A DNA stretch of 63,827 nt, counting the filler. It is 8 parts of 8 records of this genome, joined end to end, with 100 filler letters (N's around TTAATTAATTAA, not from the genome) between each part and the next. Parts side by side here need not be neighbours in the genome. Positions count along the whole stretch, not along the records: positions 43,226 to 60,683 come from SRR7504441_4530; 7 more parts are not named here. One strand, written 5' to 3'. Position 1 is the stretch's first letter. Each line of letters begins with the position of its first letter. Under the pieces are notes generated by a model, which was given only the letters and a program-made list of their open reading frames with translations, had not been told where the DNA came from and did no database searches. Both the position numbers and the translations under genes were made by a program. Of the stretch, positions 131-60,382 are shown piece by piece.

Positions 131-1859
131 TCACGGTGCGTTGTAACGCTTGGCCTTGTTCTCGGCGCTGTGCATCGGACTCATCTTGGTCAGATGGCTC
201 CGACTGTTGAACGAGTTCGGATCGAGCGGCGCATCCGAGTCGAGCGAGCACCTGTTAGTCTCTGCCTGCCCGTCCATCTCGGGAGGAGGAGCTCCTATCA
301 GATCCTCGAGCGCTTCAAGCTTGGGGAAGCCTAGCTCGGCCTGGCTCACCATCCGCCGGCCGACTGCCACCGCGCCCGCCCAGAGCAGCACACAAGGTAT
401 CAGCCCGGCCTCGCCCGTGTAAAACGACCAGCGCCATGCACGCGCGCTGTGCTCGCCGCCGGTGGCGTCTCTGACCGCGCCCATGATCACGTTGGAGGGG
501 ACGTCGCCGAGCAGGTGGATGATCACTGTGCTCATGGCCATGGCAAACTCCTGTAGCTCGGGTTCGACACACCACATGCACGCGTAGTTGCACGCAGTGG
601 TGGTGCAGAGCAGCACGGCCATTGCGGTGAGTAACGAGCCGAAGAAGGCGACCTTCTCGGTCATCTCGGTGGCCAAGATCAGGAAAGGCAGACCGATCAT
701 CACGAAGATAGTGTTCTGCCGGCACGCCACCACAAACCCGCCCAGCCCGACATCGAGCCCCACAATACCGCTGCCCAGACCCGTCAGCCCCGCCCCTGGG
801 GCTCTGGCCGCACCGGTCGAGCAGCTTGCCGCCAACCGCCGTCCCGATCAGCCCGGCCAGGGCGGTGACCGCCCCCATCTCAAGCCCGGCAGTCGTCTTG
901 TTCTTCTCGATTCCAGTGTGCGTCACAAAGTCGATTCCCCAGTAAACTAAGCCCTGCACACGCATCCTCATCCCCCCCCCTGGGCGGCCGGGCACCCCGA
1001 TGCACCAGATGAACGCGGCGTACCCGAGCACTGCCAGCATGTATCGCAGGTTCTTGAACAGGCGGAGGTGCATCAGCAGTTTTTGGCTCGAACTCATCTG
1101 GTCTCCCGAGAGTGCCGCGGCCTCGCGCGCTGCCCGCTTCTCTGAGCGCCGGCCGATCGGGGCGAAGAACGAGAGTATGGCCAGTGGGGCCATCACCAGC
1201 GCCTCAAGGAAGAAAGGGCCGCGCCACCAGCCGGCCGATGACGCAGTCGAGCCTAGCCCGAACCCGACAGCACTCCCGAACGGGACTGCGCAGAAGTAAA
1301 TGGCCAGCCAGAGCCCCCGGTGAGCCTCCGGGGCGATCCTGTTGATGAACGGCGGGGCGATGCACCCGAAGGCGGCCTCGCCCACACCCGATAGCGCCCG
1401 GGCGGTGAGCAGAAGGTAATAGTTCTCCGCGAGGCCTGTGAGCGCGACCGCGGCGCACCAGAGGAGCAGGGTGGCGCAGAGCAGCTTGGCGGAGGAGCAC
1501 CATTTGACCAGCACGGCCGAGACCGGGGATCCGACCATAAACCCGACCATGAAGATGCTCCCCACAAGCCCCAGCCGGGCCCCGGAGAGGCACCGGTCGT
1601 GGTGCTCGGTCTTGCCGGAGATGGTGACCTCGCACGGGCGGGCGGAGGGCACCCCGCCGGTCACCTCGGTCTTGATGTTGTCCAGCACCCCACTCACTAG
1701 GTACCGGTCAGTGTAGTTCAGCAAGTTGATCAGTGTCAGCAGCGTGAGCAGCACCCGCGGCCGGAACAGCTTGTCGCGCCAGTCCAGCGGCCGGGCAATC
1801 GCCGGGATCTCTTTGTAATCGGACTCGCCGGCGTCGGCCGGCGGCTCCGGCTCGGGCAT
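131..1859 (-). CDS. Spinster-family MFS transporter (2 short introns)
   Basis: Motifs LINLLNYTDRYLVSGVL, ARALSGVGEAAF..IAPPFI, IHLLGDVPS. A 43-nt GT-AG intron joins ORF 315..1859 to ORF 131..835. Confidence 0.9.
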
Positions 1860-2058
1860 CGGAGCAGGCCGTCAGCTGTCCGTCAAATGCTGGCCGTCTG
1901 TGGTCCAGAGGGCTTTCTGCCCTTTGGCCTCCTGTTCCGTTGGTGTGAATAAATCAAAAAGAGAGAGTAAATCGAGAAAAAGAGAAATCCAGAAATATCG
2001 TTATGTAAAGTAGCCCAAGCGAGCGCAGGCTGTTAGAGCAAAGGCGCCATACAAGCGG

Positions 2059-17177: not shown

Positions 17178-20100
17178 TGGGCAACCTGAACATCACCTGC
17201 ATCTGCTGGTGCTCCGCGCGCCCGGCCAGCTGACCGGCCTGGCAGGAGCCCCACCAATCCACAGCTGCTGGCCTGCTGTGCCGACGACCACCGGCTACGC
17301 GTGTGGAACGTGGTCCAGGGCGCCGAAGTGTTCAATGGGGATATGGGCAAGGACCGGGCCGAGTGTGTCGCCTGGTCCCCGCACGACCGCAACCTGCTGG
17401 CCTACTGCACGGCCGCTGGCAGCATCCGGTTTGTCGACATCGCCCAGGGGATGTCGTACGCGCTCCCGGCCGAGCGCCCGCTCACCGTGTGCAGCTGGAA
17501 CTCGTCGCGCGCTGGGCAGTTTGCAGTGGGCACTGCCGAGGGAACTGTGATCCTACTAGATCTGCAGGGCACTCAGATCACCCGGAAGCGAGTATGGACG
17601 GCTGAGGAGGAGCAGCACATGGACAGGGTGGCCGACCTCAAATTCGACCCGATGGGCTCGAACTACACCTACCTGCTGGTGGCCTTCAGCAAGGGCGAGA
17701 TCCTGCTGCTCGACGGGGAAGACATGCAACCAGTCTCTGGGACCAGCTTTGCCGGCTCACCTGGTGGGCTCTCGTCGGTCTGCTGGGTGCCGGAGCAGCC
17801 TGGCCGGTTTGTGACCACATCCAGCGCAACTGGACTGCTGCGCGTGTGGAACGTTTCCGAGCCCAAGCCAGTGATTGCCCGCAAGGCTCACGACTCTGGG
17901 TTTGTGGCTCTCAATTTCTTCCCTGGCAGCGCTGAGGCACTCGCCGTGTTCAAGGACGGCACTGCAGGGCTGTACAGCCTGCAGGAGGGCAGCTGGCTCT
18001 GGCGATCAGACGGTGGGCACACTGAGACCATCTTTGGGTGCAAGTTCAGCCGTCACTCGCCAGACCTGCTCGCAACAGTCTCGTACGATGGGACTCTCCG
18101 GATCCTGAATGTGGCATCTGGTCGGCTCGAAAACACCATCGAAGTGGCCAAACGGACGCTGTACTCGGTTGACTGGAGCCCGCCGGGCGACGGGCTGCTC
18201 GCAGTGAGCACCGGCGATGGCTATGTGGTGCTGGTGCAGGCTGACAAAGGAGTGACGACGGAGTTTATGCTGCATAACTCGGCGAAGGTATACAGAGTGG
18301 CCTTCAACCCGCTCGTGGATCAGCAACTGGCCTCGGTCGGCGCCGATGGCTTTCTGGTGGTCTTTGATACGGCCGGACGTGTCCACAAGCGGTTGGGCCA
18401 CCCAAAGCCGTGCTTTGGCTGTGACTGGTCAAAGTTTGAGCAAGCTGTGCTGGCCTCCACTTGCGAAGATATGATCGTCAGGGTATGGGACGCCTCACCA
18501 GGCGCTGGCTCCACGCCGATTGCACTGCTCAAGGGTCACACAGCCAAGGTATTCAACGTGAGCTTCTCGCCGTTCTTTGCAGAGCAGCTCTGCTCATCTT
18601 CAGACGACTACATGGTGATTGTGTGGAATTTCAAGACTGGCGAAAAGATGCAGCAGCTGGAGGGGCACACCGACAGAGTGCGCGGGCTCAGCTGGCACAA
18701 TGCACTCCCGCATGTTCTGGTGACTGGCTCTTACGACTGCTCAATCCGGGTGTGGGACGTGCGAAGCGGTTCATGTCTTCAGGTGAACCAGGACCACGGG
18801 GCAGACGTTTACGGGCTAGACTCGCACCCGCAGCGGCCGTTCATGATGGCCAGTTCGTCAAGGGACATGACCACGCGCCTGTGGAGTCTGGAGGACCTGG
18901 CTCGCGACCTGCAGATGCAGCTGATCCTGGGCCAGTCGGCTAACATATTCGGCGAGGCATCAGACTGGCAGCTGGGCAAGCCCAGCAAACAGGAAGAATC
19001 GAGCTATGGCTGCCCACAGCGGCCTCAGCTTTGTGGCAAGGCAGCAGCGGAATTGGCACAGTCTCTCCAGAGGGAGATGCCGGAGTGTGACAGGTGCTAC
19101 ACCCTGCTCCAATACTTTGCAGTACCGCAGGGCAGCCTGCAGCTGATGTCCATTCTGCAAGAGATTGCAGGCGCGGGCACATGCGCCACTTGTGGTCGTG
19201 AAAGCGAGGTATTCATGCCGTCCCAGGTCTCGACTGTGGTTGAATTGCAGATCGCTGCTCTGCAGCACCGCAAGACAGCCGGCGGCAAGCGACAAGAGGA
19301 GCGGTTGCGCGAGCAGGCGAAGCTGCAGCTGCTGCTTGGCCGTGTGGCGGATTACTGCGAGTCGATGGTGCAGCTTGGCGAGTGGGAACAAGCTGTGGCA
19401 GTAGCGCCTGGTGTGTCTGAGCAGTTCTGGAGACAAATGTCGCTCCGTTACGCAGAACACCTTGAGGAGCAAGGCCTGAGCGACAAGGCAGCAGTCCACT
19501 GGATAGCGTGTGGTCATGCAAGCCAAGCAATCAAATCAAGCATGAGCAAAGGGCTCTCCAGGGAGGCGTATGTGCTGGCTGCATCGCAGGCGCATGGGCG
19601 CGTCCCAGGCATCGCAGCTGCAGCAAAGCCTGCTGCCATCGAGTCCGGTGATGAAACCGAGCTCATCAAAGTAATCAAGAGCAGAGTGAAGATTTACAAT
19701 GAAACTGCACAGCCGATCCTTGCTGCATGCTGTCTGCTGGCAATAGAAAAGACAGATGCCGCACTGCAGACGTTGGTGACGGCAAACGAGCTGGCCCTGG
19801 CTCTGGTGCTCTGCCGTGTGCTTAGGTATCGAGTGACACCGCAGTTGTATCATAATATGGCGCATTGCTGTTCAAGGCTGGGCAATTACACTGTGGCACT
19901 ACAGTATGCGCAAGCCAGTGGCGAGCGTGTGGTAGATCAGCTTTGCATGGCCGTGACTGCCAAGATGGGCTCAGGAGCTGATTGGTTTTTCACCTCTGCA
20001 GGCCGCAGGGCTCGAACAGCGTTTGGTGAAGACGCACCTGGGCTGGCCGCAGAAGGCAAGATAGCAGAGGCGGCACGCTGTTACGTGCTAGCAGGAGACA

Positions 20101-20633
20101 GCGCTGCAGCGTGCAATGTGGTGCTGGAAGCGCTGCACCCGATGGTAGCTGGTGACTCATGGGATCTGAACCAGGCCAAGGCAATGGTTCGCGCCGTGGG
20201 ACTGGGAGATATCAAATCTGTTGATCAAGATATTAGAGGCCAAGTGCTGTGCTACGCGGCACTGGTTGGGCTGTTTGAGGCGTTCTGGCACGACTATAGA
20301 ATGGTCTGGCATGGCTTGGTGCTGACAGTGGAGAGCAAAGCCCATCTGCTGCCAGCAGCTAGCAAAGAGAAGGTGTCGAACCATGTACAAAGCTTCCGGG
20401 GTATCCTCGCCAAGATGTCTGGCCTAGGCAAGACGCTCTACACCACAGGGCAGCTGCTGCCCAGTGCAGCGCATAAGCCAGGTTCCGAGTCAGCGGCTTC
20501 AGGGATGATGCTCACAGGACCAGTCATAGAGCTGGATAATGGGACCCACATAACGTACTCGGAAGGCCTAATGTGGGCTGAAGTGATTCCCTTCTCGCCG
20601 TCTAAGAGTGGGGCACTACTCAATCCATTTTAA
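17178..20633 (+). CDS. WDR17: WDR17-like WD40 protein; N-terminus apparently missing
   Basis: GHTETIFGCKF, DHGADVYGL..HPQRPF..ASSSRD.T.RLW, YCE.MV.LGEWE.A.AVAPGVS..FW, and C-terminal LMWAEV.PFSP..SG..LNPF. One GT-AG intron near 17209-17245. Confidence 0.85.
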
Positions 20634-45141: not shown

Positions 45142-48100
45142 ATGGATCCCGCCCTGCTGGCCCTTATCCAAAGCCCGGGGCTCTTGCCACAGCAGCAGCT
45201 GCAGCTGCTTGCGGTGCTGCAGCAGCCGGGGCTCACGCCGCAGCAGCAAGCCGCCATCATGGCGGCGGTGCAACGGCCGCAGCCCAAGCCGCAGCCCAAG
45301 CCGCGCCGCCCGGCTGTCGACGAGGATGAGGGCGCTGGAGGGGTGCAGGCCGACAGCGAGGAGAACATTTTCCACCGGTATGTGTGTCGCAGCGGCAATC
45401 CTGCCCCGCACCACCCTGGGGACATCGTCGAAAGCGTCTCGCTGGCCGGTGCCGCCCGGCCGGTGGTTCGGGCTGAGCGATTGGCAGACGCGGACCTGCC
45501 GCCGGCCGCGTTCCCGATCCTGGAGTCGCTCGGCCCGCAGGTGGCCGCCGGGAAGGTGACCCCTACCTGTGGCTGGGGCTGAGAGTGGGCGGTGCAGTTA
45601 TCGGACTTGCAGCTGGAAGGCGTCCAGTTCGCCGCTCAGCGACACCAGCAGTTCCTCAGCGGCGGGTCGCGGGCCGCCTTCTACATAGCCGATAGCGCCG
45701 GAGTGGGCAAAGGACGACAGATCGCTGCCATCGTGATCGACAGCGTCGCGCGGGGCAGGCCTAAACATCTGTGGTTCTCGGCATCGTCCGACCTGATAGA
45801 AGACGCCAGAAGAGACCTGAGGGACCTGGACTGCCCCGGGATTAACGTAGTGAACGGCTGCCAGGAGCTGGACTCCAAGACAAAGGCGTTCGGGCTGAGC
45901 TCAAGCTGCAAAACGGGGGTGATGTTTTCGACATACGCCACGCTCGCCTCCTCGGGTGGCAGCGGCAAGCAGTCGCGGATCCAGCAGCTCATCCAGTGGT
46001 GTGGGCCGCAGTTTGACGGCGTGGTGGCGTTCGACGAGTGCCACAAGGCCAAGAACTTTAAGGACGCGAGCGACGAACGCGCCGGTGCCGGAACCAAAAT
46101 CGGGCAAGCCGTAATGCAGCTGCAAGCCGAGTTGCCCAGAGCTAGGGTGGTGTTTGCGTCGGCGACCGGTGTGACTGAGCTCAAGAATATGAGCTACATG
46201 ACCCGACTCGGGCTGTGGGGACCGGGCACATCGTTTGAGGATTTCCAGAGGTTTAAGCGAGAGCTGGATAAGAGGGGAGTGGGGGCGCTCGAGATGCTTG
46301 CGATCGAGATGAAGACCCAGGGCATGTACGTCAGCCGGGGGCTGGGGTTCAGCCAGGCCGAGTTTGTGATCGACGAGTGCCCTATCACGCCAGGGCTCAA
46401 GCAGATGTACGACGGGGCTGTCGAGCTGTGGCAGGAGCTCGGCCGGGCGTTCCGGCAGGCCCCTGCTGAGCAGGGGGCGGGCCGAGGGTTCTGGGGGCAC
46501 TCCCAGCGCTTCTTTAAACAGATGGCAATCAGTATTAAAGTGGACCACGTTGTGAGGAAGACGCAAGAAGCACTGGCGCAGGGGTTTGCTGTTGTGATCG
46601 GGCTGCAGACCACCGGTGAGGCGAGCATGGAGCAAGAGCTTCGTAAGGCTGGCCGGCTGGAGGGCCAGTTTGTGTCGACGGTGCGGGAGATGCTCACTCG
46701 ATTGATTGGCACGCTGCCAGAGACAACCAAATCTGGCGAGTCGCTGCCAGAGCTCGCAGCCACAAAGCGCCGGCTGATGGACAGAGCGCAGCACATGGAG
46801 CTGCCCAATGCTGTGCTCGACTCGTTGATTGATGGGCTGGGAGGCCCGGATAAGGTGTCGGAGATGACCGGACGGTCCGGGCGCATCATTCGGAAGCGGG
46901 GGAGTGTAGTTTATGAGCAGCGAGGGTCCAAGGAAGATGACCGTGAGAAGCTCAATGTTAACGAGTGCAAGCGATTCCAGAATGGGGACAAGCTAGTAGC
47001 GATTATCTCGGACGCAGCCTCAACAGGAATTTCACTCCATGCGTCGCGCGGTGTAAGAAACCAGCGACGAAGGATGCACATTACGCTCGAGCTTCCATGG
47101 TCTGCAGACAAGGCGATCCAGCAGCTCGGCAGGACACACAGGAGCAACGCAGTGTCAGCACCGCTGTACGCACTAGTGACCTCAAAGCTAGCTGGCGAGC
47201 GGCGGTTTATTGCAGCTATAGCCGGGCGGCTGCAGAGCCTGGGCGCCCTCACTAAGGGAGATAGGCGGGCTGCTAGTGGCCAGGACCTAAGCCAGTTTCA
47301 CTTCGATACTCGGCACGGTCGGCGTGCGTTAGCTGACATGGTCCAATCGGCCTGCGATGCGGGATCGGTTCATGCTGCGCAAGGGATGATGATGGGACAC
47401 GCGGCGCAGCCCCCCGACGCGGGCTGGCTGGAGCTGTATGAGCTGATGAGCCAGGCGAGCATGCTGGACGATGCCACCACCGTGATGAATGACGCCTCTA
47501 AGGCCGACGTTAAAAAGTTCCTCAACCGACTCCTGTGCGTCCACATCGACGGGCAGGACAGGCTGTTCTCAAAGTTCTCGGCTAACCTCTCTCGCACTGT
47601 GGCAGCTGCCAAGAGTGACGGCACATACGAGGACGGCATGGCGGACCTCAGAGGGAGTTCCATCACCACTCACGGGGCACCATCGGACGTGCACTGCGGT
47701 TTGCAGTACCGCACCCTCCGAATCGACCGTGGGATTGGCTACGAGCGCGCCACACAGATGCTGCGTGATCACCCGGGCGTCAGTGACAAGTCTGGGTTCT
47801 ATAGACTCAAACAGCCGGCCCCGGGCGGCCGGCGGCACTACTGCTTGGCCCTGCGCAAGCAAGGATTCTCTAGCCACGGGAGCCCACCTTTTCTGCTTTC
47901 GAGGCCCAATACAGGCACCAAGTGGGGCGAAGAAATTGCGAGCGAGTTCCTACGAAAGTACGAAAGAGTCGAGCCAGCTGATGCAGAGGCAGCATGGGTC
48001 AAGATGTATCAACAGACTGAGAGCGGCTGCATGCACGGCGCCAGCTGCTCTAAAGCCGGCCGAGGGGCTGGCGGCCGATGCATCACAGGCACACGGATGA

Positions 48101-48801
48101 CCGACGTCGGGATCCTTTTTGGCAAGGTGGTGCCGTACTGGGGAGCAATCCAGCAGGTGATCACGGCATCACGAGACTCTATAACAGCCGAGGAGCGAGC
48201 AGTGAGGGTAGTGAGGGCCGAGACCACTGAGGCTCCTGCGTCTCGCCATGTCGGAGTGCGCTTCCCGCCACATCTGCTCAAGCAGCTTCGTGATCACCTG
48301 GCGGCTCACGACAAGAAGCCTAGCGGCCCTGTCCAGTCTGTCTTGTCCTTCAACAGTAACCCCATGCAACCGGCTGCTCCGTCCGTGCTCCCAGCTGCCC
48401 CGTCGCCACCCCCGCCTGCTGAGGACCCTGCCCCTGTAGTCGCAGCGGCAATGAAGAAGATGAGCACAGTTGCCCAGAAAACGCTTCAGAGCTTTTTTGG
48501 TAAGCCAGCTGCTGAGAGGGCCCCTCCACAGCCGAAGCCACTGTCTGACCTGGAGAGGGCCATTCAGGCAAGCTTGCAGGACACCAATCCGCCTGCTGCT
48601 CAGCCACAGGTGATTGAGCTATCTGATTCACCGCCCGTAGCGCAAGCTAGCCTACGGGAGGAGCCCGCTGCGCCGGCCGCGTCGGGCAACACGTTGCCCA
48701 AACCAAGGGCTGAGAAGCGGAAAGCACCGAGTGAGGGGAGTAGCCTCCGCGACTTTTTCACCAAGAAGCTCAAGGCAAAAGCTGAAACAGAGAACCTATG
48801 A
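45142..48801 (+). CDS. SBNO: Strawberry notch homolog (SBNO/FORGETTER1-like), 2 introns
   Basis: LSDLQLEGV, DSAGVGKGRQIA, FDECHKAKN, ASATG, VIGLQTTGE, EMTGR, IISDAASTGISLHA, QQLGRTHRSN. Confidence 0.95.
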
Positions 48802-49114: not shown

Positions 49115-50452
49115 TCACTCCTGTAGTCGCTCTTTCATCCGCTTTGCATACCATTCGACAAACTCCAAGACCCCTTGCTCATGCTTCTGATTGTAAGGAC
49201 CAGGCTCGTATGCCGGGGAGGAGACACCCTTCTGCTGCCGCTCGACCAGGAACTGGTCTTGCTCATTGGTGGCTAGCCAGACTTCGGTCAGCGCCTTCAA
49301 GTCATAGTCCACGCCCTCGACAGCTGCTGCTGGCACGAGCCAAGTTGTCACCACTTCCGTTTCTGTCGGCGAAATGGGCATCACCCTAAAGCTCAGTGCA
49401 TAATCCGCCTGCCAGTGATTCCAGGTGGTCGGGTAGTGATAAAAAGGCGCATTTCCCACATCTTCCTCTGCTGGCATTCGGCCAAGCCTCTGGTTCACCG
49501 CCGGTCGGCCAGTCATCGTCATGCTGGTCGCACCCTTTGTGAACAAGTGCCGCATCGCCCGGAACTGATTGTCGTCGCCGGCCGTGAACTTGGAGGGCAG
49601 CTCGAGCCGCTCAGCCGTTTGCACGTCGTTGTCGTCCGATTGGATCCAGTTGGCAGGGAACGACACAGTGAGCTCTGGGTGGTTTTTGGGGCAGTGGTAG
49701 CATTCCCGATTGTTCTCCCAGGTGAGCTTCCAGTTGCTTTTCTCGACAATCCGGGTCTTGTGCGCCACCTTGGAGTTGGCTAGATCGTATGGCATCAGGT
49801 AGTTGTCCATAGTGGCTCGAAGTGGCTCAAAGTCTGGAGGATTCTCGGCGACACAGATGAACACGTATGTCTGGACGGTTTGGAGCTGCACTGGTTTGAG
49901 CCCATGCAACGACTCGTCAAAGTGATCGCCCATGTCGCGGGCGAATCTGAGCCCGCCGTCGGTGATATCATAAGCCCAGCCGTGGTACTGGCAAGAGAGC
50001 AGCTTGCCCTCCACTCTGCCAGTGGAGTCATCACAAAGCTTAAACCCCCGGTGTCGACAGATGTTGTGGAACGCTCGGAGCTGCCCGTCACGGCCCCGGA
50101 TGACCAGCACCGGGCAATTGCCCGCTTGTACCGTCAGATAGCTCCCAGGCTCCTTTAGCTCGACGTCGTGCCCTACAAACAGCCACTCCTTTTCCCAGAT
50201 GTGCTCCAGATCCGCTTGGTACACCCGCGGATCCGTAAAGAACCAACCCGCCACACCGCGCCCGGCCTTCCGATTGCCCAGTTCGGCCAGGATCCGGGCG
50301 TGCGATCGGCCAGGAGGACAGGGGACCGTGTCCTCGATGTCCACCGGCGCCGCGCAGACGGCCGTGTGGACGCAAGCGGCGCACCGGCTGTGATGGGCCG
50401 TTTCATGCAAATGCCCCGTCACAACCGCGGCCCGGCGGTGGGCTGCGGCCAT
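49115..50452 (-). CDS. Rieske non-heme iron oxygenase alpha subunit, GbcA/Stc2 (betaine N-demethylase)-like, intronless; alternative in-frame ATG at 50575
   Basis: FHNICRHRG...CQYHGWAY (Rieske); NWKLTWENNRECYHC..NHPEL; AVEGVDYDL..LTEVW.ATNEQD..LVE..Q.GV.SPAYEPGPY. Confidence 0.9.
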   Translation of the reverse strand: MAAAHRRAAVVTGHLHETAHHSRCAACVHTAVCAAPVDIEDTVPCPPGRSHARILAELGNRKAGRGVAGWFFTDPRVYQADLEHIWEKEWLFVGHDVELKEPGSYLTVQAGNCPVLVIRGRDGQLRAFHNICRHRGFKLCDDSTGRVEGKLLSCQYHGWAYDITDGGLRFARDMGDHFDESLHGLKPVQLQTVQTYVFICVAENPPDFEPLRATMDNYLMPYDLANSKVAHKTRIVEKSNWKLTWENNRECYHCPKNHPELTVSFPANWIQSDDNDVQTAERLELPSKFTAGDDNQFRAMRHLFTKGATSMTMTGRPAVNQRLGRMPAEEDVGNAPFYHYPTTWNHWQADYALSFRVMPISPTETEVVTTWLVPAAAVEGVDYDLKALTEVWLATNEQDQFLVERQQKGVSSPAYEPGPYNQKHEQGVLEFVEWYAKRMKERLQE

Positions 50453-50651
50453 GTCTGCAGGCTGGGGGTGTCTGTGCAGAGCTTCGAACTCGATGTGCCC
50501 CTTGTGCACGGCCCTGTGGCATTCGTGGCAGTGGAAATGTGGGTCTGTTAGATCTCCTGAACTAACGACCTTCATTAGTTGTGGATGGACAGACGCCTCT
50601 CGCCGTGCACACGTCTCGCCGTGCACACGAAGAGGCGAGCTTTGAGCGCAA

Positions 50652-53486
50652 ATGCAGCGGCCGGGCTCGGTGGCCATCATCGGCGGCGGGGTCGCCGGAG
50701 TCTCCCTCTCACGCTGTCTGGCAGAGCGGGGCTTGAAGGTGACGCTCCTGGAGAAGTCAGCACAACTGTGCTCCGGGGCCACTTGGCACGCGGCCGGGCT
50801 GGTGACGCGGTTCGCCGGCTCGTCCAAGCTGAAGAAGCTGCACGTCCGCAGCCTGGCCATCCTGAACGGCCTGCACGAGTCGACGCCGGGCGGCATCGGC
50901 CTGCACACACCCGGCAGCATCCGGCTGATCGAGAAGGGCAATCCGGACCGGTACTTGGAGGCAGCCCAGCAGGTGGCGATGGCCAGGCACTACGACGAGC
51001 CAGGGCTGCCCACCCGGATGATTGGGCCCGAGGAGGTGAAGGCGCTGCATCCGTTGGTAGAGCTCGATAGGATCGAATGTGGCGTGCACACTCAGCTCGA
51101 TGGCGATACCGACCCGACCCTTCTCACCAACTGTCTGGCGGGGCTGGCCAAAAGGGCTGGGGCCGAGTACCGGCTGCGGAGCACTGTCGACGGCGTGACG
51201 AAGACCCCCGAAGGGTTTGCCGTGACGTACAATGATCGAGATGGGCAGGCATGTGTCATAGAGGCGGACGCAGTGGTGAATGCAGCCGGGCTGTGGAGTA
51301 TGCAAGTATCCGAGATGATCATTCCGGGGTTCGCCCGACACCCCGCAATGTTGATAGAGCATCAATACGCCATCTCTGAGCCAATCGAAGCCATCAAAGC
51401 CCACCCGACTCGTCTGCCTGTTCTGCGTGACCTTCAAGGCTCAGCCTATATCCGACAGGAGGGCAAAGGACTGCTGGTCGGCCCGTACGAGCAGGAGTGT
51501 AACGCCACCAGCTGGGGGAGTGGCGCCAACGCACCGCCAACCGACTTTGGTATGGAGCTGTTTGGCGGTGAGCTGGATAGGATCACAGACAGCCTGATGG
51601 CTGCTGTGGAGATAATACCAGATCTTGGCACCGTCGGCTTCTCGTCTGTCGTGAATGGGCCCACCATCTGGACCGGCGACTCTCTGCCCCGGTGTGGCCG
51701 CACAGTTGTACCCGGGTGGTATGACTTCAATACGCTGTCTTACGGGATCACACACGGACCTCCGTTGGCAGAGTACCTGAGCCACATCATGCTCGAGGGC
51801 GAGCAGCCTTTCGACATGTCCGCTGAGTGCGATCCGCTCCGGTACGGCGACTGGGCTACCCCAGCCTACGTCGAGGCCAAGGTAGCCCGCAGCCTAGACT
51901 GGCACCTGAGCGGGGGGCCAGGTCAAGGACACGTATGCTAGAAACAATTCGGTCGGGTTTGGCAGCTACGAGAACCGGCAGGCGGGGCGTGAGCATCTAG
52001 CCCGGCACCCACTGTACGAGCGGCTGGCTGCACACAAGGCCTGCTTTGGGTTCTCAGCCGGTGCCTGTTGGGCTGTGCGGCCGGCTGATTTGGGTCGGGC
52101 CAGGGGTCGAGTCGCCCTGCTTCTTCTATAGCGGAGATCAGGCCGTTGACCCGTGCAAACTACATGAGCACGACTGGGAGCCGCACGTGGCTCGAGAGGC
52201 CAGTTCCGTGCTCACCGGCGCCGGGCTCTCATTTGCCTCCTTCTCCAAGTTCCGAGTGTCAGGCCCAGGCAGCCGCCAATTCCTGGATCGGACCACCACC
52301 AACAAGCTCCCAGCCGAGGCGCTCTGCGCGAGTGTGCCAGTGGCTGAGCGTGTGTGGCAGGCGGGCAGGTGCAAGCTATCCTATGCGCTCACGCCGTCTG
52401 GCAAAGTGCTCGCGGAGTTCACAGTGTGCAAGCTGGCCGAAGACGACTTCTACGTGGTCGGGTCGCGGGACTATAAAGACCACGATCTGCAGTGGCTGCG
52501 AGACTGGGCCAGCCCCGGCATTGTCCTCGATGATCTATCGGAGCAGGCATAGGCGGCCAGTGTCGCCTCCTGAGCAGTGCGACACAGGTCGACGTGTTGC
52601 ATCTGGCTGGGCCCAAGATCGAGCCGCTAGTCCAGAAGGTGCGCTGCTCGACTGGTGCTGGCTTCAAGCGAGCTGTGGGCGGCAGCTGATCGGACATGAG
52701 CCTTCACAGAAGTTCTTCCAGATGAAGCCGGCCCAGACTGCCCAGGCCGGGACCCCGTTCAGGTGTTTCAAGCTCTCCTTTTCGGGAGAAGCCGGGTGCG
52801 ACACCATGCAGCTTAGCCGAGCTCGGGGTAGGTACGAGCTTCATGTGGATCGGAAGCATTCAGTAGCATTATGGGATCAGCTGGTAGAGTGCGGCAGCGA
52901 GTTTGGGCTGGAGCTGTTTGGCAACTATGCGCTCAACAGTCTGCGGATTGAGAAAGGGTTCAAGCTCAAGGCAGACCTGGACTACACACACTACCGCGAG
53001 GCCGGTGCTGCAGGCCTGCAGGCGCCGGAATGAATCTTGTGCGTAGAGATCGATGCGTTTGTCGACAGCCGGAAAGACTTCATAGGCAAGGACGAGGCTC
53101 ATGTTCCAGAGAGGCAGTTCTGCAAGTTCGAGATCGCCACCGGACCAGGCGAGGCATGCACAGCAGGCCGGGCCACTCAGGGGCTTGCAGGCTGGGGCTG
53201 GAGCATCCCGGGCGACTCGCCAATCCACTCAACACAAGACGACTCGCTCGTGGGAGTTGTGACGACAGCTGCCCTGGGTGCTCGTACCAACAGGACAGTG
53301 GCTCTTGGGTACCTCAGCAGCGACGCCGAGCGGGATCTTAGTTCGGATCAATTTTATGTGGAAAGCTTTGGCCAAAGGTGGGCGGCCAAGCGGCTCGGAA
53401 TGAATGAGCTGCCTGCGATACATGTGGAAGCTGGCACTTCGGCGGATGCAGGTATTGCGGCTGCAAAGCAGCACCATTCGTTGTAG
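50652..53486 (+). CDS. Dimethylglycine/sarcosine dehydrogenase-like FAD oxidoreductase with GcvT domain, 8 introns
   Basis: VAIIGGGVAG, LEK..L.SGATWHAAGL, EHQY, PVLRD, VNGP..WT.D..P, DP.RYG, SFSKFRVSGP, SFSGE.GYELHV, YALNSLRIEKG. Confidence 0.9.
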
Positions 53487-53558: not shown

Positions 53559-55373
53559 CTAAATCCACGGCCCGTAGAAGCCACCATTCTCTTTCATCTG
53601 GGTGCAGAACCGATGGTTGTCCGGCATCATCTCTGCTCGCCAGAAGCCTTGCTGGTGCTCCCTCAGCCTGGCGAGCATCGCTTCAACCATATCGGGCATC
53701 TCAGCAGCCAGATCACGACGCTCCCCTGGATCTCTAACAACGTCGTATAAGCAGGGCTGCTCGGGTGTGCAGGGCACGGAGCACAGCCATTTGTCGTGAT
53801 TGTCGCCCCACGAAGATACATCGGTGCAGTTCAGCACAGCCCCTTGACTCACTGGCAAGAGCTTGTCGCCCTGCCCGATCAGCTTGTAAGCTGCTTCGGG
53901 GCACAGCCCTGTCTGATTCTCCAGCGCAGCCGCCCTGAGCCAGCCCCCGCCCGTTCCCAGCATACAATCGCGCAGAAACCCCTGCCTCCAGCTCTCACCG
54001 GCCGTCTGACCATCGCCGCCGCCCGCTATCAGTTTATAATCCCCAACTCGTAAGATATTGTCTGCAATCAGTGCCTCGGTCCGGTGAGTGCTGCCCGTGA
54101 GCAGGGCCGGCCACAGATCCACGCTGTCCAGCTGCCTCTGGACCCCACTCGTCGATACACCGGCAAGCCGCGCGAACGTGGCAAACCAGTCAACCTCGTG
54201 AACTGTGCCATTGTACCACCCACCGCGGAGCGAGCTGCCTGGTGCCAGGAGCGAGGACCATACGAACGCCATCGGGCGCACGCCGCCCTCCCACCAGTTG
54301 AGCTTCCCACCCCGGAGAGGCGAATTGCTGTGGCCGTTGTTGCTCGGCCCTCCTGCGACGCCATCAGTGGCAACGACCGTACGGCAATAGATACCGTTGT
54401 CGCCCATCACGACCAGTACCGTATCCTGCCACATGCCGCGGGCCCGTAAAGCCTGGCTAATGTTGGCCACGGCCTCATCCAACGCCGACATCATCGCCGA
54501 CACCATCAGCCGATTGCAGCCACAGTCGGACCCAGGCCCGAGCTGCGGGAAACGCTGGCTGGGAAGACACTCGAACCCCTGCCGTCCATTGGCAGTCACA
54601 TTCCAGTCACACTGGTGACGCCCGGCGTATAGATCAAAGAACCGCTTGGGCACCTGCAGCGGCACGTGGGCTTGCTGGTAGGGCGCATATATGAACAGCG
54701 GCTCTGACAGGTTGTGCTGCATTATAGTGCTAACGTGGCGCTCTGTAAAAGCAAACACCGAGTACTCGGGGTACAGCTCCGGCTGCGTGGCCGGGCCGCC
54801 GGGGCCGGGGCTGTCCGCCCGCCACAGGTCGGTGCCGGGGCAGCCGCCGTGCGAGGTGTTGTGATACCAATGATCCTCGGCCCCGCCCAGATAGCCCAGC
54901 CAAGATTCAAACCCACGCTCAGACGGCAGCTTGCCAGCGGTGGCAAAGCCCAGGTGCCTGCCCCACCTGCTCAGCCCGAGCCTGGTAGCTCCGCACCACT
55001 TGCCGGCCGCGTGCCGCCGGTACCCAGCCCTCGCCAGAAGCTCCGGCAGCAACGTCCAGTTGCCCGGCAGCGCCGACGGGCTCCCATTGTCGCCCCCGCC
55101 CGCGTCGCTGCCCGCCCCGCCGTAGCCGTTGCCAGTCGGGTACCGTCCCGTCAGCAGGGCCCCGCGGCTGGGCGCGCACCAGTTCCAGGTATAATGCGCC
55201 CCCAGCCGCACGCCGTCCCGGGCCAGCTCGTCCATGGTCGGGGTCAGCACCGCCGGATCGCAGTATCCGACGTCGCAAAATCCGACGTCGTCCAGCACAA
55301 TCAGCACCAGGTGCGGCGGGCCAGCCGCAGCCGCAGCCACCAGCCACAGCAACAGGCCAGGAAGCGTCCGCAT
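53559..55373 (-). CDS. Secreted arylsulfatase (ARSB-like)
   Basis: [34 protein letters not shown] (formylglycine motif), GKW|HLG, LRGGK...WEGGVR; short in-frame introns. Confidence 0.93.
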
Positions 55374-55490
55374 CAGCTGGGGCGTCGACGGAAGTCCGGA
55401 GGAGCGAGTGCAGACTCCGGACAGACTCTGACTGCTCACGCTGACGGCCGTTGGAGCGTCCGGCGAGGCACCCCGACTAGGCCACACACG

Positions 55491-57487
55491 ATGTCTGAGC
55501 CGCAAACCAAGCGCCAGCGGGTCGGTGGGCCTGGTGCTGGCCCGACCAACCCGCTGGTCTCCCCGCTGCTCACCGACCTGTACCAGCTCACCATGGCATA
55601 TGCCTACTGGCGGGCGGGCCGACACGAGCAGCACGCCGTCTTCGACTTGTTCTTCCGCAAAAACCCGTTCAAGGGCGAGTTCACCGTGTTCGCCGGGCTG
55701 AGCGAGGTGCTCAAGTTCATCGAGCACTTCAGCGTCTCCGAGTCCGACGTCGCTTACCTGCGCGAAACCAAGTCGTTCGCGCACGCCGACCCTGGCTTCT
55801 TCGACTGGCTTTCCGAGGTGCGCCGGGGCTGGCCGGGGCAGAGCGGCCGGGCGCAGGTGAACATGAGCAAAGTGCAGGTCTACGCGATGGAGGAGGGCCG
55901 GCTGTGCTTCCCCCGGGTGCCGCTGCTGCGGATCGAAGGCCCGTTGGCCACGGTACAGCTGCTCGAGACCACGCTGCTCTGCCTGATCAACTACCCGTCC
56001 CTGATGGCCACAAACGCCGCCCGATTCCGCCTGGCCGCCGGGTCGTCGAAGAAGCTGCTCGAATTTGGACTGCGGCGCGCACAGGCAGCGGCGCTGCGCG
56101 ACAGGGCTGAGCACCGGGCGGCAGGGGCCGGATGGTGGGGTGTCGGCCTCGAGATACGCGTACATGGGTGGGTTTGATGGGACGAGCAACGTGCTGGCGG
56201 GCAAGCTGTTTGGCGTGAACATCGCGGGCACGCACGCACACTCGTACATCACTTCGTGGACCTCTATGGCTGAGATCAAAGACCCTCAAATCACCACACC
56301 GACAGGCGACAAGGTCAACTTCGTCGAGCTGGTGCTGGCCGCCCAGCAGGACCTGGCCGGGAAGCTCACCCACGCCTACTCCAACACCAACCAGTCGGAA
56401 CTTGCAGCGTTCATCGACTACGCCCAGGCGAGCTGTGGCTGTGTTTGCGGCACCTGAGCCGGTGCAGGCCTACCCGAATGGCTTCCTGGCGTTAATCGAT
56501 ACGTACGACACGCTGTTCTCCGGTCTGCTCAACTTCATCTGCGTCAGTCGGGCGCTCTTTCAAGTGCGGCAGAGCCAGTGCCCTGCAGCTGAGCCCGGGG
56601 CCACAGATAGGATATACACCGATCGGTATCCGGCTCGACTCTGGAGACTTGGCCTATCTGTCGCTGCAAGTGCGCGAGACATTCAGGCAGGTGGAGGCGG
56701 TCTATAATGGCGAAATGCCCTTCAGCAAGCTGACAATCGTGGCGAGCAACGACATCAATGAGAACGTGTGCCGCGCTGATCGAGTCGTGCAGCTGAGCGG
56801 TCGCTGGCAGGTGCTGCATTCGCTCAACAGCCAGGGGCACGAGATAGACTCGTACGGGATCGGCACCCACTTGGTCACCTGCCAGGCTCAGCCAGCGCTC
56901 GGGTGTGTTTTTAAACTTGTCGAGATCGGCGGCCAGCCGAGGATCAAACTCTCTGCTGAAGTCGGCAAGACCACTCTCCCAGGCCAGCCCCCGTGCGCTG
57001 GCCCAGCTTACCGGCCAGCAGGCAAGAAGATCGCGTACAGGCTGTACGATAAGCAGGGCGAGTCTGTTCTAGACATGATGGTGGGAAAAGCTGAAGCTGC
57101 GCCGGGTGCCGGTCTCCACAGCGTGGCTTGGCCGGTTGCGAGCCGGAGGCGGCAGGGCAGCAGACGCTGTGCCGTCACCCGTTTGAGGCGATGAAGCGAG
57201 TGTACGTGACGCCTGCCCGGGTAGAAGAGTTGCTCAAGCTAGTCTGGGACGGTGAGGCTGGCTGTGTGTCGCCGGGGCTGAGCCTGCCGGCAGGCAAGGC
57301 ACTGGTGGATCTAGATGAGCACGTGCAAGTGGCCAAGGAGAGGTTGCAGACTGACTTCAAAGTGTGCCGACCGGACCACGTGCGGATGCTCAATCCGACG
57401 CCTTACAAAGTGTCGGTGAGCGACGAGCTGTACAGCTTTGTGCATAAGCTGATGGAGTCGGAGGCGCCTATCAAAGAGATAGAATAG
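55491..57487 (+). CDS. NAPRT: Nicotinate phosphoribosyltransferase, 7 introns
   Basis: [79 protein letters not shown]. Confidence 0.97.
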
Positions 57488-57897
57488 GCCTTCAAATCTA
57501 CGGCTGATCAGCCGCCTTGCACAAAGTACACAGCACGAATGCGGGTGTCTGCACGGGGCCTTGTTGAGGGGACCAGCAAGTCCTCTAAGCAAGCTCCCGG
57601 GTGGATATCCGTGTAATAATTGTGTCTCCTAGAGCTGCTTCACTGACTTTGTCATGAGTATGCAAGACGGTGTGTGCACACACACATATAGAACTATTTA
57701 AATTAAGTATATTTCTAGATACATTATCGAGTGATACTGGATAGGATTATTGTATGGTGTGTATAATATAGAATTATGAAACTGCGAACTCAAGCTTGCA
57801 AGGCCGGAGCTCGATGTACGAGTATCTATCGATTATCTAGCCCACGAAACTCCGCAAGCACATATGCACATGGTCGTTACTGCGCCCCACACGAGTG

Positions 57898-58990
57898 TTA
57901 TGCCATTGGGTCGACGGCCCCGGGTGCTGGCTCCTCCTCCACTTCCTCGTCCTCGTAGCTCTTGCTAGACACCTGCCCACCTAGCTCCAGACTGCCTGCC
58001 GCCAGGCCCACCTCAATCCTGTCTGTCATCTTCTTCAGCGTGTCCTCCAACATTTTGCCGAACTCGGCCGCCATCTCCTCCATCTTGTGCGCCTGCTCCT
58101 GGATGATCGCGTCCTTGCTCTGAAGCTGCTCCTTGCTCTCTTCGATGTGTCGTTCTAACTTCTTCTCCGAAGTTCCTGCCAGGCCTCTCTCAAGGCCGCC
58201 CGGACACCCAGCGCCCACTTAATTGGTCCTGCAGGTCCACAATATTGTTATTCAGCGTATTGATCTCCAGGATGAATCGCTCCTGTCCCCGCTGCTCGCT
58301 ACAGAGTCTGCACCACTGGACTGCCTGCATCGCTTTATACTGTCGAGTCATATCCGCAGTTATGTCGAGGGTCCGGAGCTTTTCCCTTTCGAACTCATCG
58401 TAGAATTCCTGCCAACCACTCACGCCAGTCCACCCGCCCGGCCCGCACCTTAACTCGCTCTCGCAGCTCATTTTTGGCGTGAATCGCCTCGGTGGCTTCC
58501 TCCTTCTTCAGCACTGGGCCCAGCCGGGTAAGCCCCAGCCAGCAGCCAGTAGCTACTCAGCTCGCGCTCCAGAAACTGAATCCGCAGCTTTCCCATCTGC
58601 GCGATGTCTTCGGGCGTGATCTCGCCGGCCCCCGCTGCCAGAGTGGTCAGCCCGGCAGCGGCCCGGCGCGCACCGTCGTCGCCCTTCTTCTTCGCGCCAC
58701 CCTTCTTCTTCTTTGGCGCCCCGCCGCACAGTCGCAGCGCTAGTCTGATTGTGCTCCCCTCGCGCACCCCGTGGTCGACGAGCCGGCCCGCTGGCGGCAG
58801 CCGGCGGCCCCCGTGCCACAGGCACTGCTCGCACGCCGGGACCCCTGGCCAGCCGGCTGGGGCACCGGCGGCCGGGCGGCGCACCGTGCAGGTCCTCTAT
58901 CGCGCCCATCAGCTCGCCCACCCGCCCGCGTCCCCGCACGGCCACGGCCGAGCCCGGCGGGAGGAGGCCCCCCTGCACCGCGAGCTTCAT
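57898..58990 (-). CDS. Ubiquitin-like domain fused to DRC12/CCDC153-like dynein regulatory complex protein, 7 introns
   Basis: 77-aa UBL ending STIRLALRLCGG, then APKKKKGG...DITADMTRQYKAMQE...MEEMAAEFGKMLEDTLKKM (CCDC153 pattern). Splicing gives a continuous frame to TAA 57898. Confidence 0.8.
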
Positions 58991-59038
58991 TGTGTGCAAA
59001 TTTAGAGGGGTGGAGAGCAAAATCCGGGCACCCTCGCA

Positions 59039-60382
59039 ATGGACAGTGCCGACAGCGGCTTCGGAGCCCTGCGCGGGGGGCTGCCGTCGCGGCAGCGGCA
59101 GCGGATCGAGTCGGCGTTGCACCGGGCCGACCAGCTCAACCTCCGCCGGCTCGCCCCGCTCCCAGCCCTCCTCAAGCAGCCCCGGCCAAAGTCGGCGCTC
59201 GCCCGCACCCGCAGGCCGCGCGCGTCGCCCGGCAACCGCGCCGTCTCGGCCTGGCTCGGGCGACGGCCCCGGAACACACGGCACGGGCCCGGCTGGGCCG
59301 AGCTCTGCCGGGTCTCAGCCCCCGCGCCGCTGCCAGAGCCGAGCCCCGCGGAGGCGGCGCCAGAGGCTGCTGCTCCAGAGGAGGCTGCACCGGCTCCGGA
59401 GGAGGCGACACTGAGCTCTCAGGCCGTGGTGGGGCGGCGGGTGCTCGAGCGCGCGGCGCAGGCTGTGCGCACCGAGGCGCGGACGGACAGGCGCGAGCAA
59501 GAGGAGCTGGAAATGATGCGGCGGGAGATGCGGGCCGAGCGGCAGGCGGACGTGGTGGGCGAACTGGCCCGGGCCGTCTCGACCCATGTGCTCAACTTGT
59601 GCCCTGAGCCAGTGATCTGGCACGCGACGACGGTGCACACGGTGCTCTGGCACTGGTTTGGCAGCTGCAGGTACGAGACCCAAGCAACAGCTAAGCTCAG
59701 TTTCCTGCTTGCCGTGTGGCATACATACCTGCAGCTGTATAACGTGCGCGTATGGGCCAAGATTGTGGTCGGCATTAAAGCGGTCCGAGGGGCGGAACTG
59801 GTGCGTGGTCGACGGCGAATGAAAGCCGAGTTAGTGAGATGGCGCGCTGCGGCAGCGCTTGGTTGCCGGGTGCGTCGTAGGCAGTTTCAGGCAAGCCGGG
59901 CTCCGTTCGATGTCCTGGCCGCCTGGGCAGAAGTGCAACGACTGATCCGGTGGAGGGCGGTGAGTTGGTCTAGCCGGGCAGCCTAGCTCAATGGGTGTGG
60001 GTAGGTTCAGCACAATCTGTGGCCACGACACGGAGAAGATGTCCCGCTAATAGAAGAGCTTGACAGCCGATTCGTGGACCAATCACACTTGCGCCCGGGA
60101 GTTTGGGACGAGATTGTGGAACAAGATAGACTAGCGCGGATGGAAACTGCGGCGAGATGGCAGAGGCTTGCTCCAGTTGCTTACAGGAAGTGGCGTCAGT
60201 ATATGTCATATCGTTCGCTCCAGTACCGGCGCGAGAGGCAACTAAAGGAGCAGCTTGGTCAAGTTGGGGATCTTGGTAAAGCTCTGAGAGAACACAAGCA
60301 TCAGGTGGTGGCTCGGATTAGGTTGGAGGCTGCGCTCTTGTGTGATCTCAGCCACAAGCGAAACAAGCGGACCTCGTGTTAG
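59039..60382 (+). CDS. Hypothetical Arg/Trp-rich helical protein (weakly Sfi1-repeat-like), intron 59960-60004
   Basis: ORFs 59039..59986 and 60074..60382 join in frame through a 45-nt GT-AG intron; recurrent W in basic helices. Confidence 0.55.

Follow-up and report, generated by a model that had tools for sequence, protein, structure and literature searches.

Natural ubiquitin fusions are textbook material for two ribosomal proteins and otherwise scattered curiosities. In eL40 (UBA52/RPL40) and eS31 (RPS27A/RPS31), the ubiquitin part has a chaperone role and is cut off by deubiquitinases; eukaryotic cells cut the C-terminal extensions of ubiquitin in these two precursors, as they do in polyubiquitin. 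FUBI-eS30 (FAU) carries a divergent ubiquitin-like leader that ends in Gly-Gly and is cut off to free a small basic protein. To our knowledge, all of the known natural N-terminal ubiquitin fusions are cut after Gly-Gly. Here we describe a gene in a 63,827-nt stretch of DNA (eight parts of a genome joined end to end, filler included; "the window") in which a divergent ubiquitin-like domain (UBL) is fused in frame to CCDC153, or DRC12, a subunit of the N-DRC, the nexin-dynein regulatory complex of the axoneme. From the conservation of the junction and the behavior of related genes, we think that this fusion is probably a ubiquitin-type precursor, cut after its Gly-Gly so that DRC12 would be released with its normal N-terminus.

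The window protein resembles eL40 and eS31 in having one N-terminal ubiquitin moiety, a small basic cargo in frame, Gly-Gly at the junction, and no Met at the start of the cargo. The PDB entries of the eL40 and eS31 fusions are also the next-best ubiquitin-type matches of a fused relative, P0001 (over residues 1-82, which is a few residues past the Gly-Gly into the basic tail). Unlike eL40 and eS31, the window protein has an axonemal coiled coil as its cargo, its kind of fusion is present in few lineages and appears to have arisen more than once, and its ubiquitin decays to a lysine-poor UBL. The combination of a divergent Gly-Gly leader with a small basic cargo is also that of FUBI-eS30, which differs in its ribosomal cargo, its near-universal presence in animals, and its single origin.

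Lineage-specific N-terminal fusions of ubiquitin to non-ribosomal proteins have been reported from Bigelowiella and Guillardia, with actin, F-actin capping protein, P1/P2, nickel superoxide dismutase (NiSOD), and HMG-box proteins as partners (PMC6332867, 2019). The available main text of that paper does not contain "coiled-coil," "flagell," "ccdc," or "dynein" and names no ciliary or CCDC partner. In contrast to the fusions described there, the DRC12 fusion has the same cargo in three separate lineages and a visible series of decay from ubiquitin to UBL. The name DRC12 for CCDC153 comes from Ghanaeian et al. (2023), who, in the available part of their paper, describe a coiled-coil homodimer in the N-DRC linker that is cross-linked to DRC1, and suggest that its disordered regions reach the tubulin tails of the neighboring doublet (PMC10504270). 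The word "ubiquitin" is absent from that part of the text. A fusion of ubiquitin with DRC12/CCDC153 was not described in anything that our literature search turned up (the search did not extend to supplementary files, and the matches listed for CCDC153 with ubiquitin were unrelated omics lists). The fusion belongs with the known natural ubiquitin-fusion precursors; the new point is that the same cargo has been hit repeatedly.

Gene model and identity of the two halves

The coding sequence of the fusion lies on the minus strand, from the ATG at 58990 to the end of the stop codon at 57898, and has eight exons, 807 nt, and 268 codons for amino acids. Its features are as follows; X1, X3, X4, and X5 are RNA runs that are described below, and 8th8_S is the Tetrahymena CCDC153 chain in the PDB.

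57898-58990, minus strand: whole fusion coding sequence (spliced model; aligns end to end with 26 fused relatives)
58885-58990, minus strand: exon 1, start codon and UBL residues 1-35, with the first base of codon 36 (gapless alignment to the N-terminal half of the relatives' UBLs)
58845-58884, minus strand: intron 1, 40 nt, GT-AG, phase 1, within the UBL (predicted: the splice restores the frame and a conserved G-[IV]-P, and the size is like that of the six RNA-confirmed introns)
58674-58844, minus strand: exon 2, UBL residues 36-77, the GG/AP junction, and the Lys-rich tail APKKKKGGAKKKGDD (PF00240, E 5.6e-4; RNA contigs)
58711-58725, minus strand: proposed cleavage site, Gly-Gly codons 58725-58720 and Ala-Pro-Lys codons 58719-58711 (read from the sequence; invariant in relatives)
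58635-58673, minus strand: intron 2, 39 nt, GT-AG (joint 58634/58674 in X1 and X3 contigs)
58557-58634, minus strand: exon 3, in which the DRC12 coiled coil begins (RNA contigs, model, alignment)
58514-58556, minus strand: intron 3, 43 nt, GT-AG (joint 58513/58557 in X3)
58449-58513, minus strand: exon 4 (RNA contigs, spliced model)
58409-58448, minus strand: intron 4, 40 nt, GT-AG (joint 58407/58448 in X1, cut +1)
58325-58408, minus strand: exon 5, with the family-invariant motif DMTRQYK (match to 8th8_S residues 63-87; DRC12 alignment columns)
58283-58324, minus strand: intron 5, 42 nt, GC-AG (joint 58281/58324 in X1; the sole near-canonical placement within a 4-base ambiguity)
58219-58282, minus strand: exon 6 (RNA contigs, spliced model)
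58176-58218, minus strand: intron 6, 43 nt, GT-AG (joint 58174/58218 in X1 and X3)
58012-58175, minus strand: exon 7, conserved block at the C-terminal end of DRC12 (matches 8th8_S residues 118-162 with E 3.3e-5)
57973-58011, minus strand: intron 7, 39 nt, GT-AG (joint 57969/58009 in X1 and X3, cut +3)
57898-57972, minus strand: exon 8, acidic C-terminal tail, with the TAA stop at 57898-57900 (sequence, model, RNA contigs)
57766-57897, minus strand: 3' untranslated region, minimum extent (X3 record 5 reaches 57766, with a few indels and mismatches)

Given those indels and mismatches, X3 record 5 probably comes from another strain.

The UBL is 77 residues long, has one lysine, and ends in LRLCGG (residues 72-77). 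The final Gly codon runs to 58720, and at 58719 the cargo begins with an Ala codon and continues in frame, with APKKKK first and without a Met (APKKKKGGAKKKG directly follows the Gly-Gly); the next in-frame Met is about 30 codons past the junction. A preliminary description of this locus had proposed this arrangement, a divergent, lysine-poor UBL of 77 residues fused in frame and without a Met to a Lys-rich tail, and the sequence confirms it. No ATG precedes the junction in the stop-to-stop frame around exon 2 (58468-58896), which leaves an upstream start, brought in by splicing, as the only way to translate the Lys-rich tail. The ATG at 58990 is the first one in the frame of exon 1, with an in-frame stop 109 codons upstream, and after 35 codons of this frame a splice (GT at 58884, AG at 58845) is needed to enter the frame at 58844. 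We placed intron 1 here because exon 1 and the G-V-P that the splice restores fit the alignment of the relatives. The seven introns measure 39-43 nt, with GT-AG borders in six and GC-AG in one. Three of them are multiples of three in length and open in frame, and reading through them gives a plausible but wrong protein.

In the ubiquitin-like half, exon 2 alone matched PF00240 at profile positions 34-71/72 (E 5.6e-4; 20.1 bits, under the cut-off of 25.4, as expected for half a domain), and exon 1 alone gave no PF00240 match in the Pfam scan, which covered contiguous window sequence only. In a phmmer search over 253 sequences, residues 29-77 of the spliced model matched canonical ubiquitin with 18.9 bits. 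PF00240 was found in all five of the relatives that we scanned, with 34-68 bits.

For the C-terminal half, exon 7 matched residues 118-162 of Tetrahymena CCDC153 (PDB 8th8_S, E 3.3e-5), and exon 5 matched residues 63-87 through the DMTRQYK motif (E 0.035), colinear with the exon 7 match. The spliced model scored 184.9 bits over residues 79-254 against a profile of 17 unfused DRC12 orthologues. All of the motifs that are invariant in DRC12 (DMTRQYK and the F..ML..L..M block) are present in the model, and the DRC12 part is 191 residues long, in the family's class of about 190. By these sequence matches the C-terminal half is a CCDC153/DRC12 orthologue, as had been proposed. The Tetrahymena thermophila protein (UniProt Q22RH5; PDB 8TH8/8TID chain S) is of the same length class and has the same DMTRQYK motif, but unlike the window protein it has no ubiquitin-like leader. 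Searches with the coiled-coil exons alone were uninformative: the Pfam matches were weak chance matches to coiled coils (E 0.009-0.17), and the top PDB match was a designed repeat protein (4yxx), driven by composition and with no single stretch significant.

The relative P0001 was used for structural comparison. Its residues 80-251 align with residues 3-172 of Tetrahymena CCDC153 (E 1.8e-24), and because the match begins at residue 3, the junction falls at the natural N-terminus of the cargo. An AlphaFold2 model of P0001 (not of the window protein), built from an alignment of 17 fused proteins, has a beta-grasp fold at residues 1-72 (predicted local distance difference test [pLDDT] of 87-93; strands 2-6, 11-15, 40-44, 47-49, and 65-70; helix 22-33), a disordered stretch at 74-91 that begins at the Gly-Gly (pLDDT <50), and a single long helix at 97-248 (pLDDT >94). 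The P0001 UBL is 47% identical to that of the window and aligns with it with one internal gap. With disorder from the Gly-Gly onward, the proposed scissile site is exposed in this model.

To look at transcripts, we mapped four RNA runs (X1, X3, X4, and X5). An index search had given eight small-share datasets, seven of which are RNA libraries from marine or aquatic metatranscriptomes. All four runs consist of contigs, in which transcript starts and ends are not visible. Joints within contigs confirmed introns 2-7 (six of the seven) with no mismatches, four of these six in two studies. Two contigs cross the GG/AP junction with no mismatches (X1 record 4, at 58596-58634 and 58674-58785, and X4 record 8, at 58687-58881), so the C-terminal half of the UBL and DRC12 are on one RNA; cDNA across the junction had been named as a check in the preliminary description. 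RNA-derived sequences from relatives give the whole fusion from its Met: L002 is an intron-free contig with the UBL and DRC12 in one frame, and P0004 is an open reading frame from a Trinity transcript that holds the complete fusion.

We did not count the deep pile of contigs at 58680-58719 (X1, X4, and X5, depth about 16-63) as expression. These are matches of 32-34 nt with two or three mismatches and long loose ends; they are Lys-codon repeats from the transcripts of other organisms and are no evidence of expression here. Expression estimates can be misled by this run of Lys codons, which may also seed chimeric assemblies.

The fused clade and recurrence of the fusion in other lineages

A search with the read-through of exons 2-3 found five proteins of 261-273 residues, all of them with PF00240 and with 100% of the query covered. 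When we instead scored the search on the DRC12 part of P0001, we found 48 proteins. PF00240 is present in 16 of the 27 closest (E <= 1.2e-53) and in none of the 21 that are more distant (<=49% identity; Goniomonas, Pavlovales, Vitrella, and others). Among the 11 close-clade proteins without PF00240, five lack the tail and begin at a Met that lies downstream of it, three carry unrelated residues next to an exon boundary, on its upstream side, that reflect intron read-through (as in the related contig L001), one has a run of Arg in place of the run of Lys because of a frame slip, one, P0007, has an unrelated N-terminus (see below), and one, P0011, is truly unfused. With cluster members included, GG/APKK (the slash marks the proposed cut) is present in 26 database proteins of this clade, and the window model aligns with them end to end. 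One clade member is labeled Telonema subtile (EukProt), and from this one label we infer that the fused clade, and probably the window, is telonemid or close to telonemids.

We examined the pattern of constraint in 21 near-complete fused sequences, the window model included (six of 27 rows were left out as partial). The residues around the proposed cut, G76, G77, A78, P79, and K80-83, are invariant in all 21. The body of the leader is less conserved than the cargo: mean pairwise identity is 0.44 in the UBL versus 0.78 in DRC12 (210 pairs). Compared with canonical ubiquitin, positions of the fold core (I30, L43, L50, G35, P37, and G47) are kept in 20-21 of the 21 sequences, and the tail is conserved at L71 (17/21), R72 (19/21), position 73 (aliphatic in 21/21), and the Gly-Gly (21/21). 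Ubiquitin's K6, K11, K48, K63, I44, and V70 are not kept. Identity of the leaders to ubiquitin ranges from 51/76 down to 21/76, and the number of lysines from five to zero or one. Ubiquitin has seven lysines; the leaders of P0002, P0003, and P0052 in the window's clade and of P0208 in another clade (see below) have none, and the window leader keeps one. The loss of lysines in two separate fused lineages appears to be convergent.

Unfused members show what stands at the same position when the leader is absent. P0011 reads ...A-M-APKKKKKK, with a Met exactly before the Ala that follows the Gly-Gly elsewhere, and the related contig L001 begins gcc-ATG-GCG-CCG-(AAG)5 and then has an intron. In the tree of this clade, the unfused P0011, P0019, and P0023 are sister to the fused P0020 (support 100/98), and then to the fused P0055 (100/97). 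The simplest reading is that this lineage would have lost the leader and gained a single Met in its place. More broadly, 53 of 95 N-complete unfused orthologues start with M-[APG]-P-K (25 MPPK, 22 MAPK, and 6 MGPK), and the remainder mostly start M-x-K-K.

Does the fusion exist outside of this clade? When 1.84 billion representatives were searched with a profile of unfused DRC12, 1485 family members passed E <= 1e-3 and 153 of them passed E <= 1e-30. A ubiquitin domain is present in only two of the 150 best family representatives: P0009, of the window's clade, and P0119, from Incisomonas marina, which is on a 2.03-Mb contig. Other fusions with DRC12 differ in how far the leader has diverged and in the residues at the junction:

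P0206: canonical ubiquitin leader, junction LRLRGG/MAKK
P0207: ubiquitin-like leader, junction GG/MPKK
P0208: lysine-free UBL, on a 76.8-kb contig, junction GG/MAKKK
P0213-P0215 (a further group): ubiquitin identical to that of P0206 at 75/76 positions, junction LRLRGG/GPKK

The N-terminal 76 residues of P0206 served as the canonical ubiquitin reference in our comparisons, and P0206-P0208 are relatives of P0119, in the Incisomonas-type clade. The fusions of these other lineages are on many contigs, among them genomic ones with lengths of 2.03 Mb, 76.8 kb, and 21.6 kb, and P0213-P0215 are themselves on many contigs. We built a tree from 143 DRC12 domains, and in it the fused proteins split into three separate groups. 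The window's group has 12 rows (support 100), the Incisomonas group has 7 (support 95), and the third group (P0213-P0215 type) has 2 (support 93).

Across well-supported branches of this tree, no fewer than four changes of the fused label are needed. Forcing the three fused groups into one clade costs 86.3 log-likelihood units and is rejected (approximately unbiased [AU] test, p 0.0047 for the three-way union), with the caveat that the groups were named after seeing the tree and that DRC12 is short. Three gains are far more parsimonious than one gain and dozens of losses, but the tree cannot by itself separate gain from loss. The same kind of fusion is present in at least three separate DRC12 lineages of marine protists, some with canonical ubiquitin, and is not the one-off that the preliminary description had taken it for.

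Some other proteins required a closer look. P0209-P0211, of the Incisomonas-type clade, begin at the Met after the Gly-Gly of their fused kin and lie among the fused ones on the tree; they are either unfused genes or gene calls without the ubiquitin exon. Six proteins with long N-terminal offsets (P0063, P0080, P0129, P0130, P0137, and P0205) were considered as fusions and set aside, as they have no ubiquitin domain. Their extra N-termini resemble a translated leader ahead of an inner M-[AP]PKK, an intron that was retained, or a gene call that was merged.

Because of their ubiquitin moiety, two of the ubiquitin-DRC12 fusions are misnamed in the databases: P0249 is annotated as "large subunit ribosomal protein L40e" and P0243 as "ubiquitin." The databases have not recognized the fusion under these names, and natural ubiquitin fusions in general are easily missed or misnamed by automatic annotation, as P0249 was.

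A probable cleavable leader and the alternatives

We propose that a beta-grasp leader with an L-R-L-x-G-G tail and the N-DRC subunit DRC12 would be made as one precursor, and that a deubiquitinase-type protease would cut it after the Gly-Gly, co- or post-translationally. DRC12 would then be released with an A-P-K-K-K-K end, which is the end that unfused orthologues would have after removal of their initiator Met. The free leader, nearly lysine-free in the window's lineage, would probably be a disposable by-product. We infer cleavage because the cut site and the fold are kept while the surfaces of the leader are lost, because eukaryotic cells cut the C-terminal extensions of ubiquitin (as noted at the outset), because the nested unfused lineage has its Met at the proposed cut, and because the linker is disordered. 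The claims that cleavage would regenerate the native N-terminus, that orthologues start M-x-P-K (true of most), and that the two parts meet at a GG/APKKK junction were all made in the preliminary description, and the nested Met, the 53 of 95 orthologues, and the invariance of the junction agree with them.

As for what the leader would do, the most economical guess is that it acts in cis as a chaperone or an expression aid, because DRC12, as is true of the ribosomal cargoes, is a small protein whose head is disordered and very basic. Alternatively or in addition, it might set the exact N-terminus. Loss of lysines would keep the leader from being extended into chains or from marking the precursor for degradation, which is speculation. 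An exposed X-P-K end would also fit the motif of the N-terminal methyltransferases NTMT1/NRMT1, whose substrates carry X-P-K/R according to the available parts of the sources (PMC8874984; bioRxiv 10.1101/2020.04.13.040139). After cleavage at Gly-Gly, the window protein would begin A-P-K-K and the third lineage G-P-K-K, and 53 of 95 unfused orthologues would begin [APG]-P-K after Met removal; these are matches to a motif only, and the methylation step is speculative. Among the matches listed, our literature search found no paper that links CCDC153 with NTMT1 or NRMT1.

Several observations weigh against a cleaved, full-length precursor in this genome or against parts of the proposal. Exon 1 has no RNA cover in the four contig runs. 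X4 record 8 (depth 2.9) retains most of intron 1 before it stops at 58881, and if this intron is kept, the ATG is out of frame and leads into an unrelated frame of 253 codons; this retention may reflect pre-mRNA or carry-over of DNA. The Met about 30 codons past the junction could be the start of a tail-less protein from a shorter transcript. In P0007, which is 87% identical in DRC12, an unrelated repeat-like N-terminus replaces the UBL and the A-P; chimeric assembly at the Lys-codon run, an alternative first exon, or genuine variation could account for this. The window UBL is also the most degenerate of the set (21/76 identical to ubiquitin, with R74 changed to Cys), so that its recognition by a deubiquitinase is not guaranteed. 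Finally, X-P-K is missing in the Incisomonas-type fusions (GG/MAKK), which means that N-methylation cannot be the general reason for the fusion. The X-P-K motif that the preliminary description placed after the Gly-Gly therefore holds for the GG/APKK and GG/GPKK junctions but not for GG/MAKK, and an end suited to NTMT1-type methylation is possible in the window's clade and in the GPKK lineage.

An unlikely alternative is that the UBL is never removed and is instead a permanent N-terminal domain of DRC12 in the axoneme, where it might serve for docking, either in the N-DRC linker or towards the neighboring doublet. Many proteins have permanent N-terminal UBLs, the fold core is conserved, and a UBL as diverged as the window's might have escaped deubiquitinases. 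Yet the Gly-Gly and the residues that follow it are invariant while the surface of the UBL drifts, and some fused lineages have canonical LRLRGG ubiquitin, which cells cut from any C-terminal extension. The nested unfused lineage has one Met in place of the whole domain, the linker between the UBL and the helix is disordered in the P0001 model, and the Tetrahymena N-DRC model, in the part of the paper available, shows DRC12 as a plain coiled-coil homodimer without such a domain (PMC10504270). It seems less likely still that cleavage occurs but the leader is the point, with the gene supplying ubiquitin or a ubiquitin-like modifier with a free Gly-Gly in step with flagellar assembly and DRC12 as a mere carrier. 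Two lineages do keep canonical or near-canonical ubiquitin (the P0206 reference, and P0213 at 75/76), and most of the UBLs keep R72 and the Gly-Gly, which are needed for activation by the E1 enzyme. Ubiquitin conjugation in flagella is known as well, from the part of the source available (PMC2733750). But the leaders of the window's clade and of P0208 have lost nearly all of their lysines (zero or one remain) and the I44 patch and evolve fast, which is the pattern of a relaxed by-product rather than of a working modifier, and the nested unfused lineage does without a leader.

The lack of RNA cover over exon 1, together with the contig that continues unspliced into intron 1 and ends at 58881, could also mean that the UBL frame is a relic in this genome: transcripts would start in or after intron 1, the first downstream Met would be used, and the UBL and the Lys-rich tail would not be translated. 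Contigs cannot show where transcripts start, and we consider this scenario improbable. A relic would be expected to gain stops or frameshifts, whereas the frame is open and homologous from the ATG at 58990 to the end, with G-V-P restored at the splice; the Lys-rich tail is found in the complete family members that we saw; and the transcripts of relatives encode the full fusion. That the fusion is an artefact of chimeric assembly or of a gene model misled by the low-complexity Lys-codon run is scarcely credible. This run does draw unrelated contigs with loose ends (the pile at 58680-58719), and one cluster member is annotated as ribosomal protein L40e. However, the Lys run comes after the junction, which reads identically in the genomic window, in genomic contigs (the longest of 2.03 Mb), and across many independent contigs of transcripts from multiple sources, and the RNA contigs that cross the junction have no mismatches.

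A cleavable precursor remains our preferred reading. We are more tentative about its history, and would put at a little under even chances the broader proposal that ubiquitin was captured at least three times as a cleavable leader for DRC12 and then decayed convergently to a lysine-free leader that keeps only the core of the fold and R-L-x-G-G.

Neighboring genes and biological meaning

The window is GC-rich eukaryotic DNA in which long intron-free open reading frames are mixed with genes that have very small introns. The intron load is very uneven: the fusion gene has seven tiny introns within 57973-58884, while other genes in the window are long single open reading frames. Short runs of N occur in pairs at several places outside of the fusion gene. 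Other features of the window are as follows.

58991-59038, no strand: 48-nt spacer between the ATG of the fusion (58990, minus strand) and the plus-strand ATG at 59039 (sequence)
59039-59986, plus strand: divergent open frame of 315 codons (no family assignment)
56496-57487, plus strand: C-terminal exons of nicotinate phosphoribosyltransferase (PF17956, E 4.6e-17, at 57095-57487)
53559-56285, minus strand: sulfatase (long open frame)
49115-50989, minus strand: alpha subunit of a Rieske/ring-hydroxylating oxygenase (long open frame)
45583-48801, plus strand: frame of 1072 codons with three Strawberry-notch domains (AAA_34, E 6e-104; Helicase_C_4, E 1e-94; SBNO, E 3e-14)
17190-20633, plus strand: WD40 protein with a Gemin5-type tetratricopeptide repeat (TPR) domain (long open frame)
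315-1871, minus strand: major facilitator superfamily (MFS) transporter (long open frame)

The nicotinate phosphoribosyltransferase gene is convergent with the fusion gene, and their stop codons are about 410 nt apart. On the other side, the preliminary description had suggested a 48-nt promoter shared with a possible Sfi1-like gene. The distance of 48 nt between the two ATGs is correct, and "shared promoter" is a statement of distance only. The Sfi1 identity of the frame at 59039-59986 was not supported: it had no Pfam match at E <= 0.1 (including the Sfi1 repeat, PF08457) and no match among PDB sequences (best E 2.6), and in the Atlas its best scores were to unnamed clusters (0.88), with a cluster that is 12% Sfi1 only at rank 15 (score 0.78). 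Neither the spacer nor this frame has RNA cover in the four contig runs. A scan for promoters and terminators found none, using bacterial consensus sequences that are irrelevant for a eukaryote.

The fusions flag a systematic annotation error, in which genes of this kind go under the name "ubiquitin" or "L40e" or have their models cut short at an internal Met. They also provide a comparative system. Three separate protist lineages carry fusions of one and the same non-ribosomal cargo, a ciliary subunit whose name dates only from 2023, with a full decay series from canonical ubiquitin to a nearly lysine-free leader and with one lineage that has gone back to a single Met. This raises the questions of how a ubiquitin moiety benefits its cargo, which features a leader must retain if it is to be cut off, and what the conserved Lys-rich X-P-K end of DRC12 is for, such as contact with tubulin tails or alpha-N-methylation. 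If repeated capture is true, then DRC12 would be the first recurrent non-ribosomal cargo of the ubiquitin-precursor strategy. Its basic, tubulin-facing tail would have a production problem that fusion to ubiquitin solves, as for eS31 and eL40, and that problem might be folding, solubility, protection, or the making of an exact and possibly methylated N-terminus.

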